From the IMG/VR virus record IMGVR_UViG_2718218136_000006: a stretch of 25,778 nucleotides of DNA. The stretch is one strand, 5' to 3'. Source of the DNA: a virus (Duplodnaviria > Heunggongvirae > Uroviricota > Caudoviricetes). Each line of letters opens with the position of its first letter. The stretch's first letter is position 1. The position numbers and the translations under genes were made by a program. Below, piece by piece: positions 4,080-25,778 of this stretch. The notes under the pieces were generated by a model that was not told the DNA's origin, searched no databases, and worked only from the letters and a program-made list of their open reading frames with translations.

Positions 4080-4467
4080 AACCCCCACCTCGCAGATGCG
4101 GGCGCTGTGTAATGGAAACAAAAAATGGCCACCAGCGGCCCGTAAAAAACACCCCGTCAAAAGCACCGGCATCCGCAGATGCCCTTTGCGTGGCGTTATT
4201 TGATGCGCGCCAGATGTGGCGCAAAGAAATGAAATAAGCCTTATCGAAAATTAAGGTTAATTTGATGATTTAAACCACTTCTGAAGCTTAGTAGTATGAA
4301 CATGTCCCCAGAAGGGGCCAATACTTATTATTCTTCATGGACTTTGTCCCGCGGTCTTAATCCGACGACCGCGCTACTTTTCACCCTCTCGCAAATTGCT
4401 ATCTAAAGGACGTTGTCCCACGAGTATTCCTGGATGCTCGTGTCTTTTTTTGTCCTGAGAAAGGAAT

Positions 4468-7963: not shown

Positions 7964-8087
7964 TTAAGTAATTTCAGAGGTATCTATCACTTTCTCAGGA
8001 GTTGTAGATAACAATTCTTTCATACGCTGATCTTCGGGAGCACGAGAAGACAGGTGTTCTAAAAACTCACGCCATTGACGCTTTGCA
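7964..8087 (-). pseudogene. orphaned 3' end (37 codons plus stop) of the GHKL ATPase gene, cut off by IS10
   Basis: Reading across the 9-bp duplication, the ATPase frame continues without a stop for 37 codons (QWREFLEHLSSRAPEDQRMKELLSTTPEKVIDTSEIT) to TAA at 7964-7966. Confidence 0.7.
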
Positions 8088-9416
8088 CTGAGAGATCCCC
8101 TCATAATTTCCCCAAAGCGTAACCATGTGTGAATAAATTTTGAGCTAGTAGGGTTGCAGCCACGAGTAAGTCTTCCCTTGTTATTGTGTAGCCAGAATGC
8201 CGCAAAACTTCCATGCCTAAGCGAACTGTTGAGAGTACGTTTCGATTTCTGACTGTGTTAGCCTGGAAGTGCTTGTCCCAACCTTGTTTCTGAGCATGAA
8301 CGCCCGCAAGCCAACATGTTAGTTGAAGCATCAGGGCGATTAGCAGCATGATATCAAAACGCTCTGAGCTGCTCGTTCGGCTATGGCGTAGGCCTAGTCC
8401 GTAGGCAGGACTTTTCAAGTCTCGGAAGGTTTCTTCAATCTGCATTCGCTTCGAATAGATATTAACAAGTTGTTTGGGTGTTCGAATTTCAACAGGTAAG
8501 TTAGTTGCTAGAACCCATGGCTCCTTTGCCGACGCTGAGTAGATTTTAGGTGACGGGTGGTGACAATGAGTCCGTGTCGAGCGCTGATTTTTTCGGCCTT
8601 TAGAGCGAGATTTATACAATAGAATTTGGCATGAGATTGGATTGCTTTTAGTCAGCCTCTTATAGCCTAAAGTCTTTGAGTGACTAGATGACATATCATG
8701 TAAGTTGCTGATAGGTTTCCAGTTTTCCGCTCCTAGGTCTGCATATTGTACTTTTCCTCTTACTCGACTTAACCAGTACCAACCCAGCTTCTCAACGGAT
8801 TTATACCATGGCACTTTAAAGCCAGCATCACTGACAATGAGCGGTGTGGTGTTACTCGGTAGAATGCTCGCAAGGTCGGCTAGAAATTGGTCATGAGCTT
8901 TCTTTGAACATTGCTCTGAAAGCGGGAACGCTTTCTCATAAAGAGTAACAGAACGACCGTGTAGTGCGACTGAAGCTCGCAATACCATAAGTCGTTTTTG
9001 CTCACGAATATCAGACCAGTCAACAAGTACAATGGGCATCGTATTGCCCGAACAGATAAAGCTAGCATGCCAACGGTATACAGCGAGTCGCTCTTTGTGG
9101 AGGTGACGATTACCTAACAATCGGTCGATTCGTTTGATGTTATGTTTTGTTCTCGCTTTGGTTGGCAGGTTACGGCCAAGTTCGGTAAGAGTGAGAGTTT
9201 TACAGTCAAGTAATGCGTGGCAAGCCAACGTTAAGCTGTTGAGTCGTTTTAAGTGTAATTCGGGGCAGAATTGGTAAAGAGAGTCGTGTAAAATATCGAG
9301 TTCGCACATCTTGTTGTCTGATTATTGATTTTTCGCGAAACCATTTGATCATATGACAAGATGTGTATCTACCTTAACTTAATGATTTTGATAAAAATCA
9401 TTAGGGGATTCATCAG
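8088..9416 (-). mobile_element. IS10 copy 1 (1329 bp), flanked by 9-bp direct duplication CGCTTTGCA (8079-8087 and 9417-9425)
   Basis: Ends CTGAGAGATCCCCTCATAATTTCCCC (inside end) and ...TCATTAGGGGATTCATCAG (outside end) recalled as IS10 termini; exact 9-bp flanking repeat read from sequence. Confidence 0.95.
8101..9309 (-). CDS. IS10 transposase, 402 aa
   Basis: ORF track; protein MCELDILHDSLYQFCPELHLKRLNSL... recalled as the IS10/Tn10 transposase. Confidence 0.95.
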   Translation of the reverse strand: MCELDILHDSLYQFCPELHLKRLNSLTLACHALLDCKTLTLTELGRNLPTKARTKHNIKRIDRLLGNRHLHKERLAVYRWHASFICSGNTMPIVLVDWSDIREQKRLMVLRASVALHGRSVTLYEKAFPLSEQCSKKAHDQFLADLASILPSNTTPLIVSDAGFKVPWYKSVEKLGWYWLSRVRGKVQYADLGAENWKPISNLHDMSSSHSKTLGYKRLTKSNPISCQILLYKSRSKGRKNQRSTRTHCHHPSPKIYSASAKEPWVLATNLPVEIRTPKQLVNIYSKRMQIEETFRDLKSPAYGLGLRHSRTSSSERFDIMLLIALMLQLTCWLAGVHAQKQGWDKHFQANTVRNRNVLSTVRLGMEVLRHSGYTITREDLLVAATLLAQNLFTHGYALGKL

Positions 9417-11284
9417 CGCTTTGCATCAGACAGAAGGTCATCCCAAGTTAATGTATACATTTCTTGTTCTCTCAATGTTTTCAGTTTCATATTTAACGTT
9501 GCATTTCTCTTTAAAAAATCATCAGCAACTAGATAACCGGAAACTCGCTTGAATGGACTTCCTGTTGCAGAGTCTAAATAAACTCTGAAAGTATTAACAT
9601 ACTCCTCAAAGCGATTGATGTGATCTTTATCTATTTTCAGCCCTGGCCTCATGAATTCAAGTACAAGCAAATGTTCACCACTTGAAAGAACTAAGTCAAC
9701 CCTTCCTTTAAAGCTTGGATCGTGTTCAATGTCTGATTCTTTTGCTGCTTCTCTAGCGATATGCTGGACATTTTTCTCAATAGCATAAGTCTCCCATTTT
9801 GGAGCTATCAGCCAAGGATTCTTCGCAATATAGTCTCGAACAGCATTTTCTAATTCTTTAGTGCGTATTCTAGTCTCAAGACCACTTATAGTATCAAGCT
9901 TAGCTTTAACTGATTCTGCTGTGTGTAAAGCCTGAATTGTATTTGCTTCGATCAATATCTCAAGCAATTTCGTTTCATCCATATCAGGAACGGAAGCAAC
10001 GCTTCTTATAAGCTCTTTTAGACGCCCTCCCTCCCATGCAGTGAGGATAGAGTTGCCTATATGCCTAAATTGCTCTGCACCGATTTGTTGGATTGATGCA
10101 ATTCGTTTCAAAGCCATTATAACCGTTTTTTTCTCTACACCTAGTTTATCTAGCCTACTTCTGAAATCATCAATTTTACTTTCAATCAGTTTGGTTTTTT
10201 CATCTGCCCGCCGATCTTTCCAGATTTTTAATAATTCGCGAACACGTTTCTGTCCCCACTCTTCTAATTTGGCAAGGTGGTGACTACTCCAATTCAATCT
10301 TTGTCGTTCAGTAGAAATCACATCATCATTAAACTCATCCAAATAATCAGCAATTACAGCCCCTGTCATATATTCAGGACCATTTTGACTTGGCAACCCT
10401 CCAGTCAAGTTAAACATAAACGGCCTTTGTGCTAATTTTTTGTGAGCGTAAATCGAGATACCTTGCAACTCATCATCCTTGATTGTTTCTTTTAAGAAAA
10501 ACACTCTCCATTTTATCTCATAACCATCAACGATTTCTTTTCCATACCCCAAACTGTCAATCTCCGTAAGAGAATCAGGTTTTTCATCTACAGTATAATC
10601 TTTTGGAAAACTATATTCTGCAGTGGCAAGAAAATTTTCGACTGGCATGGGGGTATTATTAATACGAACTAAAAATTCATCGCCGCCAGAATTGATCGCA
10701 AACCTTCTCGCCATAGATGTAGCAAAAGAAGACTCATTTAACAATCTATTTATTTTCAATGACTTAAGTGTTACTGTTGTTCCATGATTTTCTTTTTCTA
10801 ATTCTGAAGGGCCTGTGCGGAAGGTCACATCAATAGCCATGCTTTCAGTTTTAACGTAGTCATCTGACGATCTAATCTTATTTATATCCAAAGTAAAACT
10901 AGTTTTTTCACCTGTTTCTTGGCTAGTAGTACAAATTTCTATAATCTCAGCAATACCAAAACCAGCAAACTTTCCGATACCTTTTCTTCCCATTAAGTCT
11001 CGATTGAATAATTTCGACTTCGCTACAGGATTATCTTTCCTTTTATCAAAACCAACCGTAAGAAATTTCTTTTGACATTCTTCAAATGTCATTCCAATAC
11101 CATTGTCTTTTATAACAATAGTTCTATTTTCATGCGTGGGTAGTGTAATATTAACTTCGGTTGCATCCGCGTCCCAAGCATTAGAAACCATTTCAGCTAT
11201 TGCTGCTGTTGGACTTTGATACATTTGAATACCTAAATGATCAATTATCCTACCATGAAAATTTAGAAATAGTTTATTATCCAT
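9413..11284 (-). CDS. MORC/MutL-like GHKL ATPase (HATPase_c-type N-terminus) with large C-terminal region; truncated to 623 aa by IS10, original about 660 aa
   Basis: Bergerat-fold motifs read directly: EMVSNAWDA (N box), IKDNGIGM (G1), GRKGIGKFAGFG (G2). ATG 11282-11284 overlaps MTase stop by 8 nt. Stop codon 9413-9415 lies inside the IS10 end. Confidence 0.75.
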   Translation of the reverse strand: MDNKLFLNFHGRIIDHLGIQMYQSPTAAIAEMVSNAWDADATEVNITLPTHENRTIVIKDNGIGMTFEECQKKFLTVGFDKRKDNPVAKSKLFNRDLMGRKGIGKFAGFGIAEIIEICTTSQETGEKTSFTLDINKIRSSDDYVKTESMAIDVTFRTGPSELEKENHGTTVTLKSLKINRLLNESSFATSMARRFAINSGGDEFLVRINNTPMPVENFLATAEYSFPKDYTVDEKPDSLTEIDSLGYGKEIVDGYEIKWRVFFLKETIKDDELQGISIYAHKKLAQRPFMFNLTGGLPSQNGPEYMTGAVIADYLDEFNDDVISTERQRLNWSSHHLAKLEEWGQKRVRELLKIWKDRRADEKTKLIESKIDDFRSRLDKLGVEKKTVIMALKRIASIQQIGAEQFRHIGNSILTAWEGGRLKELIRSVASVPDMDETKLLEILIEANTIQALHTAESVKAKLDTISGLETRIRTKELENAVRDYIAKNPWLIAPKWETYAIEKNVQHIAREAAKESDIEHDPSFKGRVDLVLSSGEHLLVLEFMRPGLKIDKDHINRFEEYVNTFRVYLDSATGSPFKRVSGYLVADDFLKRNATLNMKLKTLREQEMYTLTWDDLLSDAKR

Positions 11285-12325
11285 AATCCGCCTCGTTTTT
11301 AGTTATATGTTCTTTGATAAGTTCAGCATGATGCTTAATGAATTCAGGGGGCAATGCATTCCCTATCATCAAAGCAGCCTTGTCTTTACCAAATTGAATA
11401 GGAAAATAGTAATCACTCGGAAAAGTTTGTAATAATGCAGCCTCTCGAAGAGTTATTGCTCTATCTTGTTCAGGATGTAAAAAACGACCTTTTGAAGGAT
11501 TAGTACATCCACTCGTAATAGTTGGAGCTACATCATCCCACCTCATACGACCGTAAACATCGCGAAAACCATTTGGATATCGTTTATGACATGGCAGCCA
11601 ATACTCGTAAGGAAGTTGAGAGCGGCTTCCCCCATCCTTAGGAATAAGACTTATAATTTTTTTAACCTTCTCAGTTCTTCTTTCTAATATATTGTGCAGC
11701 GGATCATTGCTATTTTCAGGTCGAGCCAAATGGCCTATTGCATCGCGCACAGTTATTAAATTACTATTTTTTTGAGCACGAGTAAGCTCTCCGTATCGCG
11801 AAGCAAGTAGTACCATGCGCTTACGTCTTTGTGGCACACCAAATTTACTAGCATCTTCAATTAAAACTGAATTATCATCGATATGATAACCCAATTTCTT
11901 AAGCTCCGAAGTAAACATGTTTATTCGTTCGTCAAATGCCAAAGCTGGTACATTTTCAACCATTACAACTTTTGGAAAAAAGACTTTAACAAAATCTAAA
12001 AAATTAAAAATAAGTTCATTTCTCTCATCAAAGACAGCTACTGTTTTATTTTTTGTTCTTAACGAAGAAAATCCTTGACATGGTGGACAACCTGCCAACA
12101 AATCCAGTTCACCTTGCTGAATTTTTAATTGTTTCATTAATTCATCTGGTGATATATTTTTATATCCCCATTTATTAAGTTAACATCCGGATGGTTGATT
12201 CTATAGGTTTCAGATACAATAGCTTCTTTTTCGATTGCTGATATGACATCAAAGCCAGCCATTTTTAGACCAACTGTCAAACCACCAGCGCCACAAAAAA
12301 GATCAATTGCTTTCATTTTATGCAT
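11277..12325 (-). pseudogene. Dcm-family DNA (cytosine-5) methyltransferase, split by a -1 frameshift in an A5 run (T5 on plus strand at 12157-12161)
   Basis: 62-aa ORF carries motif I (DLFCGAGG) and GDIK; 286-aa ORF carries motif IV (PCQGFS), ENV, and C-terminal GNALPP. Adding one A restores a continuous GDIKNISPDEL...ELDLLAGCPPCQ reading. Confidence 0.8.
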
Positions 12326-15518: not shown

Positions 15519-15941
15519 TCAATGCACTACGACAGAATCGCTAGGAGAACCGCCGCCGCTGAAATGTGCTTTACGGTAAACGGCCTGGACTGCATCATCA
15601 TGCGCATCAATTGCCGTACTCAGTGCATCCTGTGCCGCCAGTAATGCACGGCGTTCCAGGGTATCGAAGATGCAGAGTCGGTGACGCAGCTCGCGAGGAA
15701 GAATTGCCAGAACCGCAGGGATCAGTTTCTGAATTTTTTCCCTTTGCGCATTCGTTTCACCTTTCAACCAACGATGATAGATATTCTGCTGATTGTTCCA
15801 GTCCTTGCCTGGTACCAGGGGCAATTCGCCGCCCCCCTGGCGCAGATATTCTTCAGTAATTGCGTTAGCGACCCACGCCTGCCCTTTTTCGGCTGCCAGG
15901 GCTAACAACACTGATTCGATGTGCTCATGCTTGATTTTCAT
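15519..15941 (-). CDS. ydaT: YdaT, 140 aa (reported toxic partner of YdaS under RacR control)
   Basis: ORF track; start ATG 15939-15941 overlaps ydaS stop (ATGA); sequence recalled as Rac YdaT. Confidence 0.8.
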   Translation of the reverse strand: MKIKHEHIESVLLALAAEKGQAWVANAITEEYLRQGGGELPLVPGKDWNNQQNIYHRWLKGETNAQREKIQKLIPAVLAILPRELRHRLCIFDTLERRALLAAQDALSTAIDAHDDAVQAVYRKAHFSGGGSPSDSVVVH

Positions 15942-16192
15942 GAATCAACTCCCATCAGCTTTTTCGTAGTAGTTTTATTTCTGCCAATAGTTAAAATTGC
16001 ATCGGCAGAAAATAATCCGTTTGATGCATGAGCGATTTTTTCAGCGTAATTTGTTTCGCCGGTATATTCTGTGCGAGGCAATTTTCCGTTATCCATCCAT
16101 TTGTAGATTGCTCTTTGGCTGACACCACAAACGTCGGCCACAACAGAAACGCGAACAGTTTTGATTACATCTTCAAGTGTTTTCTGGTTCAT
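15938..16192 (-). CDS. ydaS: YdaS, Cro-like HTH protein (84 aa from ATG 16190-16192; ORF track extends to 16264)
   Basis: GAGGGTG Shine-Dalgarno before ATG at 16192; HTH segment VADVCGVSQRAIYKW; divergent from racR. Confidence 0.75.
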   Translation of the reverse strand: MNQKTLEDVIKTVRVSVVADVCGVSQRAIYKWMDNGKLPRTEYTGETNYAEKIAHASNGLFSADAILTIGRNKTTTKKLMGVDS

Positions 16193-16216
16193 ATCACCCT
16201 CACAATGTGAACTTTG

Positions 16217-16247
16217 AGTACATGCTATAACAGAACTGACAGTACAT
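16217..16247. promoter_or_regulatory. candidate operator pair in the racR-ydaS divergent control region (two AGTACAT heptamers, 16217-16223 and 16241-16247)
   Basis: Directly read repeats in the 80-bp intergenic region between divergent repressor and cro-like genes. Confidence 0.4.
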
Positions 16248-16271
16248 TCAAGAGCGAATATCATTGAACTT

Positions 16272-16610
16272 ATGGTTCATGAAGATAAAGCGCGTAAAGA
16301 GTTCGCCAGTAGGCTTGCGCTAGCCTGTGAAAACGCTGGTTATGAACAACATGGAAGGCAGGCAGAAATTGCCCGTCGAATGAAATTAACACCAAAAGCG
16401 GTTAGCAAATGGTTTAATGGTGAAACAATTCCTCGCCGAGAGAAATTAAGGGAATTAGCAACACTCATTGGAACAACACCAACCTATCTTTTGGGAGAGG
16501 ATACAGAAGAAAGTGGACAGATACGTTTCTATCAGGAGTTAAATCCAAGACAAAAATCATCATTGACCTTCTGGACGAGCTCCCTGACAGTGAGACAGAT
16601 GAACTTTTAA
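16272..16610 (+). CDS. racR: RacR prophage repressor (XRE-type HTH); 112 aa as read, possibly frameshifted near 16552-16556 with a displaced C-terminal frame to 16689
   Basis: ORF track; HTH GRQAEIARRMKLTPKAVSKWFNG; see findings for the alternative frame. Confidence 0.75.
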   Translation: MVHEDKARKEFASRLALACENAGYEQHGRQAEIARRMKLTPKAVSKWFNGETIPRREKLRELATLIGTTPTYLLGEDTEESGQIRFYQELNPRQKSSLTFWTSSLTVRQMNF

Positions 16611-16765
16611 AAACTCTTGAGGAGAAAAAACAGAAGTACAATGCAATTTACGAAGAGTTAGCACGAAAGAAAAAACAAAAAGCCTCTTAAACCAGCATAA
16701 ATCCGGTAGCGTCCCCCTCCGGGTTTGTGCTTCACTTTATCCCGTCTCATTTTTTTATACATAAA

Positions 16766-16810
16766 ATGTACTTAAAGTACTTTACAATGATGAACACAAA
16801 GTACATTATA
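16766..16810 (+). promoter_or_regulatory. candidate early-left promoter with overlapping operators upstream of ydaG
   Basis: TTTACA (16781-16786), 17-18 bp spacer, CATTAT/ATTATA (16804-16810); palindrome GTACTT-A-AAGTAC (16768-16780) and further AGTACAT copies at 16766-16772 (reverse) and 16800-16806. Confidence 0.35.
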
Positions 16811-16983
16811 TACCTACCAACCCACCCCGCCCCACAGAACGCCGGGCAATACTTCGAGTTACCAGGCAGTGGTCAGGGGTTAAGTAGCCAGCCCGAGGCG
16901 TATGAACATGACGGCAGTTGTTGATTGATACAAAGCGCAGTAGATAAAACGTTCCGCCACCCGGCGTTAAGGGGAGAGATAAG

Positions 16984-23640: not shown

Positions 23641-24969
23641 CTGAGAGATCCCCTCATAATTTCCCCAAAGCGTAACCATGTGTGAATAAATTTTGAGCTA
23701 GTAGGGTTGCAGCCACGAGTAAGTCTTCCCTTGTTATTGTGTAGCCAGAATGCCGCAAAACTTCCATGCCTAAGCGAACTGTTGAGAGTACGTTTCGATT
23801 TCTGACTGTGTTAGCCTGGAAGTGCTTGTCCCAACCTTGTTTCTGAGCATGAACGCCCGCAAGCCAACATGTTAGTTGAAGCATCAGGGCGATTAGCAGC
23901 ATGATATCAAAACGCTCTGAGCTGCTCGTTCGGCTATGGCGTAGGCCTAGTCCGTAGGCAGGACTTTTCAAGTCTCGGAAGGTTTCTTCAATCTGCATTC
24001 GCTTCGAATAGATATTAACAAGTTGTTTGGGTGTTCGAATTTCAACAGGTAAGTTAGTTGCTAGAACCCATGGCTCCTTTGCCGACGCTGAGTAGATTTT
24101 AGGTGACGGGTGGTGACAATGAGTCCGTGTCGAGCGCTGATTTTTTCGGCCTTTAGAGCGAGATTTATACAATAGAATTTGGCATGAGATTGGATTGCTT
24201 TTAGTCAGCCTCTTATAGCCTAAAGTCTTTGAGTGACTAGATGACATATCATGTAAGTTGCTGATAGGTTTCCAGTTTTCCGCTCCTAGGTCTGCATATT
24301 GTACTTTTCCTCTTACTCGACTTAACCAGTACCAACCCAGCTTCTCAACGGATTTATACCATGGCACTTTAAAGCCAGCATCACTGACAATGAGCGGTGT
24401 GGTGTTACTCGGTAGAATGCTCGCAAGGTCGGCTAGAAATTGGTCATGAGCTTTCTTTGAACATTGCTCTGAAAGCGGGAACGCTTTCTCATAAAGAGTA
24501 ACAGAACGACCGTGTAGTGCGACTGAAGCTCGCAATACCATAAGTCGTTTTTGCTCACGAATATCAGACCAGTCAACAAGTACAATGGGCATCGTATTGC
24601 CCGAACAGATAAAGCTAGCATGCCAACGGTATACAGCGAGTCGCTCTTTGTGGAGGTGACGATTACCTAACAATCGGTCGATTCGTTTGATGTTATGTTT
24701 TGTTCTCGCTTTGGTTGGCAGGTTACGGCCAAGTTCGGTAAGAGTGAGAGTTTTACAGTCAAGTAATGCGTGGCAAGCCAACGTTAAGCTGTTGAGTCGT
24801 TTTAAGTGTAATTCGGGGCAGAATTGGTAAAGAGAGTCGTGTAAAATATCGAGTTCGCACATCTTGTTGTCTGATTATTGATTTTTCGCGAAACCATTTG
24901 ATCATATGACAAGATGTGTATCTACCTTAACTTAATGATTTTGATAAAAATCATTAGGGGATTCATCAG
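23641..24969 (-). mobile_element. IS10 copy 2 (1329 bp), flanked by 9-bp direct duplication CGCTTTACC (23632-23640 and 24970-24978)
   Basis: Same termini as copy 1; 9-bp flanking repeat read from sequence; same orientation as copy 1. Confidence 0.95.
23654..24862 (-). CDS. IS10 transposase, 402 aa
   Basis: ORF track; protein identical to the copy-1 transposase. Confidence 0.95.
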   Translation of the reverse strand: MCELDILHDSLYQFCPELHLKRLNSLTLACHALLDCKTLTLTELGRNLPTKARTKHNIKRIDRLLGNRHLHKERLAVYRWHASFICSGNTMPIVLVDWSDIREQKRLMVLRASVALHGRSVTLYEKAFPLSEQCSKKAHDQFLADLASILPSNTTPLIVSDAGFKVPWYKSVEKLGWYWLSRVRGKVQYADLGAENWKPISNLHDMSSSHSKTLGYKRLTKSNPISCQILLYKSRSKGRKNQRSTRTHCHHPSPKIYSASAKEPWVLATNLPVEIRTPKQLVNIYSKRMQIEETFRDLKSPAYGLGLRHSRTSSSERFDIMLLIALMLQLTCWLAGVHAQKQGWDKHFQANTVRNRNVLSTVRLGMEVLRHSGYTITREDLLVAATLLAQNLFTHGYALGKL

Positions 24970-25778
24970 CGCTTTACCTGGATAATCCAAGATCCAACAA
25001 AAAAGGAAGAACCGTGCGCACAGTTGATAACTATATCGCCCTGCTCTGTTCGCTGTTACGTTTTGCGTATCAGTCGGGATTTATATCAACCAAACCATTT
25101 GAAGGAGTAAAAAAATTACAGCGAAACAGAATAAAGCCTGATCCGTTATCTAAAACAGAATTCAATGCATTAATGGAAAGTGAAAAAGGACAGAGCCAGA
25201 ACATGTGGAAATTTGCAGTTTACTCAGGACTTCGTCACGGGGAACTGGCAGCTCTGGCGTGGGAGGATGTGGATCTCGAAAAGGGAATAGTGAATGTCAG
25301 AAGAAACCTGACGATACTTGATATGTTCGGTCCCCCAAAAACAAATGCCGGGATCCGGACAGTAACACTACTGCAGCCTGCTCTTGAAGCACTGAAGGAG
25401 CAATACAAACTGACCGGGCATCATCGCAAAAGCGAAATCACCTTTTATCATCGGGAGTACGGCAGAACCGAAAAGCAAAAACTGCATTTTGTTTTCATGC
25501 CCAGGGTGTGTAACGGAAAACAAAAACCTTATTACTCGGTAAGCAGTTTGGGGGCAAGGTGGAATGCAGCAGTAAAACGTGCTGGTATTCGCCGCCGTAA
25601 TCCGTACCATACGCGGCATACTTTTGCCTGCTGGCTGTTGACGGCAGGAGCGAACCCGGCATTTATAGCCAGCCAAATGGGGCATGAAACTGCGCAGATG
25701 GTGTATGAAATTTACGGTATGTGGATTGATGACATGAACGACGAACAGATAGCCATGTTGAATGCGCGGTTATCATAG
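24970..25778 (+). pseudogene. intR: intR integrase, 3' fragment with tyrosine-recombinase catalytic region
   Basis: Frame resumes in register after the duplicated 9 bp (CTG at 24978-24980); catalytic-region motifs HTRHTFACWLL and ...EIYGMW; stop at 25776-25778. Confidence 0.9.

Follow-up and report, generated by a model that had tools for sequence, protein, structure and literature searches.

An apparently truncated CI-type repressor of a Rac-like prophage and its probable origin in a homopolymer under-call

We analysed a stretch of viral DNA of 25,778 nucleotides (IMG/VR record IMGVR_UViG_2718218136_000006; hereafter the window, meaning the whole stretch) in which a repressor gene appears to be cut short by the loss of one adenine. 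Our results indicate that the run of five adenines (A5) at positions 16552-16556 is most likely an under-called A6, an error left in the consensus by a long-read assembly or by another type sensitive to homopolymers, and that the gene itself would be intact. The underlying gene is a common and already catalogued CI-type repressor of 139 aa.

Results

The repressor gene as read and as restored

As read, the repressor ORF (16272-16610, plus strand) runs from the ATG at 16272 to a stop codon ending at 16610 and encodes 112 aa, the product closing with ...NPRQK-SSLTFWTSSLTVRQMNF*. This agrees with an earlier note on the same DNA, made from the sequence alone, which had the frame end at 16610 after a short tail. 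Residues 1-95 are shared with the reference protein, and the 17 out-of-frame residues that follow, up to the stop, replace its last 44. The frame is lost at codon 96, at an A5 run (16552-16556, plus strand; placed correctly in the earlier note) that reads A6 in all complete reference genomes carrying the stretch, leaving the window one base short. When the window was aligned with two references, the records labelled DH5alpha (NZ_CP026085.1) and E2863, A5 versus A6 was the single difference over 431 columns. The reference CDS is annotated as 420 nt and 139 aa (WP_000233319.1), and one added A restores this protein, with its stop codon at 16688-16690; the earlier note had proposed that one extra A would join the two frames. 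References from other strains, the comparison that had been proposed as a check, read A6 and encode 139 aa, and reference proteins were not found to end at the position of the 112-aa product.

The displaced C-terminal coding segment (16556-16690, plus strand) consists of 44 codons (IIIDLL...KQKAS) followed by the stop codon, and translation of the neighbouring frame from 16556 gives IIIDLLDELPDSETDELLKTLEEKKQKYNAIYEELARKKKQKAS*. Judged by its sequence, this segment is the true 3' part of the repressor gene. The earlier description of an open -1 frame stands, with the correction that its stop, given as 16689, was one base off; the sequence of the restored segment was likewise right, except that it was made to start with II where the actual start is III.

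In the AlphaFold2 model of the 139-aa protein (mean pLDDT 81.6), five helices make up the N-terminal part (residues 2-74), which corresponds to an XRE-type HTH DNA-binding domain. An acidic linker of low confidence, taken as disordered, follows (about residues 75-86, with pLDDT <50 at residues 79-86), and then come two C-terminal helices (residues 92-103 and 106-138). With the shift at codon 96, both C-terminal helices would go. The motif RQ[KR]..[LI].[ED]L.DELP.SE.D.LLKTLEEKK is retained in Salmonella homologues whose overall identity is 62-65%, and this retention indicates that the C-terminal frame is under selection. The suggestion that the displaced frame looked like a genuine C-terminus is supported by the conservation of its 44 residues in these homologues.

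A CI-type repressor in the RacR position

Sequence comparisons identify the gene as a short CI-type repressor that lies in the RacR position of a Rac-like lambdoid prophage and belongs to a different immunity type. HTH_3 was the sole Pfam domain found (residues 29-73, E=2e-9), and Foldseek and phmmer matched the HTH domains of P22 C2 and of LexA-type proteins. A sequence search of solved structures returned a marginal match only, to the N-terminal domain of P22 C2, and a fold search with the full-length model returned generic XRE HTH folds only, with no specific precedent for the C-terminal helices. The repressor had no Pfam match to the S24 peptidase (PF00717), so RecA-stimulated self-cleavage would not be expected. 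The 139-aa protein also occurs at 99-100% identity in the phages vB_EcoS-673R7 and Tritos, and the Tritos protein (99.3% identical) is annotated as 'CI repressor'. Loci encoding WP_000233319.1 share the same neighbours, namely the cro-like gene, ydaT, ydaG/ydaF, sieB, kilR, and recET.

The earlier note called the gene racR, and this name was not upheld. Orthology with K-12 RacR was considered and rejected: the BLASTP match to MG1655 b1356 (P76062, 158 aa) covered 33 aa at 36% identity and was confined to the HTH (E=1e-4). The divergent cro-like HTH gene (15938-16192, minus strand; 84 aa in the reference annotation) is unrelated to K-12 ydaS. Only ydaT (15519-15941, minus strand; 140 aa, intact) is orthologous, with 94% identity to K-12 YdaT. 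Our gene is thus a positional analogue, and carrying the essentiality of K-12 RacR over to it is not supported. Repression of the divergent operon, with essentiality as its consequence, is known for K-12 only. Of the complete E. coli genomes, about a fifth (1046/5426) have a CI-type repressor, and not K-12 RacR, at this position, and as the immunity type is a different one, results obtained with K-12 RacR are not transferable by name.

We note that the record labelled DH5alpha (NZ_CP026085.1, 4.83 Mb) carries the 139-aa CI-type repressor together with the 84-aa cro-like gene and lacks the K-12 racR/ydaS pair of MG1655, so that its locus is unlike that of K-12. The strain label of this record may be wrong.

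Differences between the window and its nearest relatives

The nearest complete genome was that of strain CH4797 (NZ_CM166347.1), with ten other records equally close. Compared base by base over three aligned blocks, the window and CH4797 showed 0 substitutions in about 23.1 kb and three small differences, each of them a 1-bp contraction of a homopolymer of 5-6 bases. Besides the A6>A5 contraction in the repressor gene (16552-16556, plus strand), these were a G5>G4 contraction (4314-4317, plus strand) outside annotated genes, between the holin gene and tRNA genes, and a T6>T5 contraction (12157-12161, plus strand) in a DNA cytosine methyltransferase gene (11277-12316, minus strand). The latter reads as A6>A5 on the methyltransferase coding strand and frameshifts the gene near codon 54, in line with the earlier remark that the methyltransferase carries the same type of lesion. 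T5 was seen in 0/18 complete genomes containing this methyltransferase stretch, while G4 at 4314 was present in 12/211 complete genomes and may be a natural variant.

Of the non-IS bases in the window, 4.3% belong to runs of five or more, and by position alone all three differences would fall in such runs with p about 8e-5. The density of contractions is low (three among about 180 runs of five or more), which suggests that the assembly, if in error, was fairly well polished. No differences from CH4797 were found at CCWGG sites, so the methylation-motif errors expected of older nanopore basecalling are not seen in the window. The kilR-recET stretch did not differ from CH4797, where it is annotated as intact.

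Occurrence of A5 and A6 in other genomes and contigs

Of 5426 complete E. coli genomes, 1046 were matched by a query of 561 bp spanning the gene, and identity in the best matches was 99.8% over 562 bases, which corresponds to one gap. With an 81-bp query centred on the run, no A5 was found among the 1027 complete E. coli genomes in which the stretch is present (0/1027; 5426 searched); every one of the 1027 matches had 98.8% identity (one gap), none reached 99%, and all read A6. The A5 allele also gave no exact 40-mer match in IMG/VR, GTDB species representatives, or JGI metagenome contigs, and the A6 41-mer was present in at least 120 IMG/VR contigs. Within a collection of 15 billion proteins, the 139-aa protein was encoded on at least 1000 contigs compared with eight for the 112-aa product.

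The exact 112-aa product was traced to nine contigs, which derive from one NCBI assembly (GCA_045572855.1, L004; a 4.7-Mb contig) and, for seven sequencing runs, from Logan assemblies. In these loci, splits in the neighbouring genes are frequent, and seven of the eight contigs that were read have additional 1-bp indels close by, most of them in homopolymer runs. Specifically, the contigs of two adjacent run accessions (L005 and L006) differed from each other by 0 substitutions and nine indels over 10.7 kb, eight of the nine lying in runs of five or more, and the contigs L007-L010 have 2-10 further contractions each in runs of four or more. Two related proteins show comparable lesions: P0037 has the same A5 shift followed by a compensating second frameshift, and P0036 is shifted at a different A6 run within this gene. 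The only contig of the eight read that has A5 without any other indel is L011 (1.2 kb), whose A5 cannot be classed as an error. We conclude that A6>A5 at 16552 is a recurrent product of noisy assemblies and that A5 recurs almost only in assemblies that are visibly error-rich.

The public assembly L004 itself looks error-rich, with further contractions of A6 and C6 runs as well as indels at CCTGG sites. CCTGG is the Dcm methylation motif, and indels at such sites are a recognised nanopore error pattern. Between positions 7983 and 11987 of L004, indels concentrated at these sites and in A6/C6 runs split ydaV, ydaT, and other genes; intR is intact. The methyltransferase gene of the window is absent from the L004 locus and from the other longer contigs encoding the 112-aa product.

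Candidate operators and promoters

Pattern matches point to a divergent control region between the repressor and cro-like genes (16193-16271). It contains two TGAAC-N4-AGTACAT-like repeats 24 bp apart (16208-16229 and 16232-16253) and a promoter-like site upstream of the repressor gene (16236-16264), from which the predicted repressor mRNA would be nearly leaderless. The PRM promoter of lambda likewise gives a nearly leaderless repressor mRNA. A second pair of repeats, again 24 bp apart, lies downstream of the repressor gene (16766-16784 and 16790-16812), overlapped by another promoter-like pattern match (16781-16809). There are, then, four copies of the AGTACAT core in two pairs that flank the repressor gene, each pair overlapping a promoter-like site. 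This arrangement resembles the paired operators of lambdoid phages, and we infer that 16766-16812 is a candidate operator/promoter pair equivalent to OL/PL of lambda. Cooperative operator binding in lambdoid phages is given by C-terminal contacts between repressor dimers.

IS10 copies and extent of the prophage

Apart from the three contractions, the window differs from CH4797 only by two identical 1329-bp insertions in direct orientation (8088-9416 and 23641-24969), which we take from their termini to be IS10. They are flanked by 9-bp target duplications (CGCTTTGCA and CGCTTTACC) and neither is present in any of the 11 closest complete genomes. The insertion sites are in the 3' part of an ATP-binding protein gene for one copy and in intR for the other, and the two enclose 14.2 kb of prophage in the manner of a composite transposon. 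Because a contig that spans two identical 1.3-kb IS copies could presumably not have been obtained from short reads alone, the window was probably assembled with long reads.

According to the reference annotation, the methyltransferase gene shares 8 bp with the beginning of a gene for an ATP-binding protein of 660 aa (9413-12316, minus strand, for the two). This pair could be a cargo module of the Rac variant, restriction- or defence-like in nature, and both of its genes are damaged in the window, by T5 and by IS10, respectively. Position 1 adjoins sitA and ynaK gene remnants at one end of the prophage, and position 25778 coincides with the final base of the intR CDS in the CH4797 annotation; the window looks like an extracted prophage region rather than a random genomic slice.

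Discussion

Several observations favour an error at 16552-16556. The window shows three homopolymer contractions without a substitution relative to CH4797, A5 is absent from the 1027 complete genomes and from the accurate collections that were searched, the same allele recurs in error-rich assemblies, and long reads were likely used. Loss of the repressor is moreover functionally implausible, given that ydaT is intact, that kilR-recET is unchanged, and that such a loss would, by analogy, probably be harmful. The contraction in the repressor gene has the marks of a homopolymer artefact, being a one-base change in a run of at least five bases that is absent from independent accurate assemblies and is accompanied by other contractions and by no substitutions. 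One report documents that genes can be falsely pseudogenised by frameshifts arising from long-read errors (PMC12007338). The earlier note had held that the repressor and methyltransferase lesions were either both real or both errors without choosing between the two; the lack of substitutions next to three homopolymer contractions favours errors, and we consider that both lesions are most likely consensus errors.

The real gene would accordingly encode the intact 139-aa WP_000233319.1 as the CI-type repressor of a lambdoid prophage of the Rac-like kind. If it acts as lambdoid CI proteins do, this repressor would occupy operator pairs flanking its own gene, from where it could silence the divergent cro-like, ydaT, and replication genes as well as the downstream kilR-recET genes. 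The C-terminal helices are predicted to supply the self-association required for cooperative binding.

A genuine 1-bp slippage deletion in the A6 tract, which would leave the HTH, the linker, and a 17-residue nonsense tail, is in our opinion unlikely. Homopolymers such as A6 tracts are natural hot spots of slippage and indel formation in vivo, and the prophage has undergone two genuine IS10 insertions since it diverged from the CH4797 type, which makes decay by frameshift plausible; with IS10 in the integrase gene, the prophage would be decaying and could not excise normally. The strain would survive either because the isolated DNA-binding domain still represses enough or because the prophage is decaying; the HTH domain is untouched, and the truncated form might retain partial activity. 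To this can be added that L011 has A5 alone in 1.2 kb, and that the natural occurrence of G4 at 4314 (12/211) means that one or more of the three contractions could be natural. However, substitutions outnumber indels in natural divergence, and a count of 0 substitutions to three contractions in 23 kb is unlike this pattern. Further arguments against a real deletion are the absence of the allele from complete genomes (0/1027), the selection implied by the conserved C-terminus, the intact state of ydaT, and the lack of any difference between kilR and the intact CH4797 copy. Its full form, in which an IS10-locked prophage has a repressor without C-terminal helices and the cell tolerates intact ydaT, replication, and kilR genes, is if anything less probable.

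Another reading is that the A tract serves as a recoding site, where either tRNA-Lys slips by -1 on A-AAA or transcription slips, or as a phase-variable immunity switch. A P-site slip from AAA 16554-16556 to 16553-16555 would regenerate the reference ...RQK-III... exactly, and an AGGAG lies about 13 nt upstream (16534-16538). Programmed frameshifting and slippage were nevertheless rejected since the zero frame has no X XXY YYZ heptamer (CAA AAA TCA), and homologues are all in frame with A6 and show no conserved frameshift site. Efficient transcriptional slippage in E. coli needs runs of roughly 8-9, and the five A's of the window are far below this. A phase-variable homopolymer was rejected as well, the tract being invariant in length (A6 in 1027/1027 complete genomes, with no polymorphism), unlike a contingency locus. 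We regard recoding or switching as very improbable. Still less credible, to the point of being nearly negligible, is that the protein natively ends after 112 aa, with the open frame beyond it a coincidence. Only the ORF call speaks for it; in over 1000 genomes the reference CDS has a length of 139 aa, the A6 of 1027/1027 complete genomes and the conservation of the C-terminal frame in Salmonella homologues with 62-65% identity refute it, and functional phages carry the same 139-aa CI.

The finding serves mainly as a caution. Annotated as is, the window shows a truncated repressor beside a broken methyltransferase, which invites a story of derepressed toxic genes. If the repressor were truly inactive, ydaT, the replication genes, and kilR would stand unrepressed, and all of these are the same as the intact CH4797 copies. 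If the deletion were real, either the isolated HTH and linker would suffice for repression or another factor would silence the prophage; the window would then offer a modest natural experiment on the dispensability of the repressor C-terminal helices.

Viewed as an under-called A6, the lesion is similar to known long-read homopolymer errors, which likewise are 1-base contractions of 5-6-base runs in genes that are intact elsewhere and which recur in independent noisy assemblies. With regard to the gene, K-12 RacR is encoded at the corresponding place of a Rac-type prophage and divergently from an operon with ydaT, and one account describes a similar plan for it, in which an unstructured linker lies between the HTH and a C-terminal domain of helices (PMC9638921). 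This likeness is without homology beyond the HTH, and the ydaS partner of K-12 RacR is unrelated to the cro-like gene found here. Loss of RacR in K-12 is lethal through ydaS/ydaT (PMC5700373, PMC5700377), and given the missing homology, these essentiality data apply to our gene only by analogy.

As with the lambdoid CI repressors that have an S24 domain, our gene lies divergent from a cro-like gene, with paired repeats at 24-bp spacing as candidate operators; the difference is that our repressor has a helical C-terminus of ~45 residues in place of the S24 autocleavage domain. The shared part is N-terminal: HK022 CI is 46% identical over residues 4-102 (HTH and linker), and the S24-bearing repressors of Raoultella and Klebsiella phages and prophages are about 62% identical over the first ~102 residues and diverge after about residue 102. 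The closest relative of all is the gene for WP_000233319.1 (139 aa), whose DNA is identical to that of the window over the whole gene but for the missing A.
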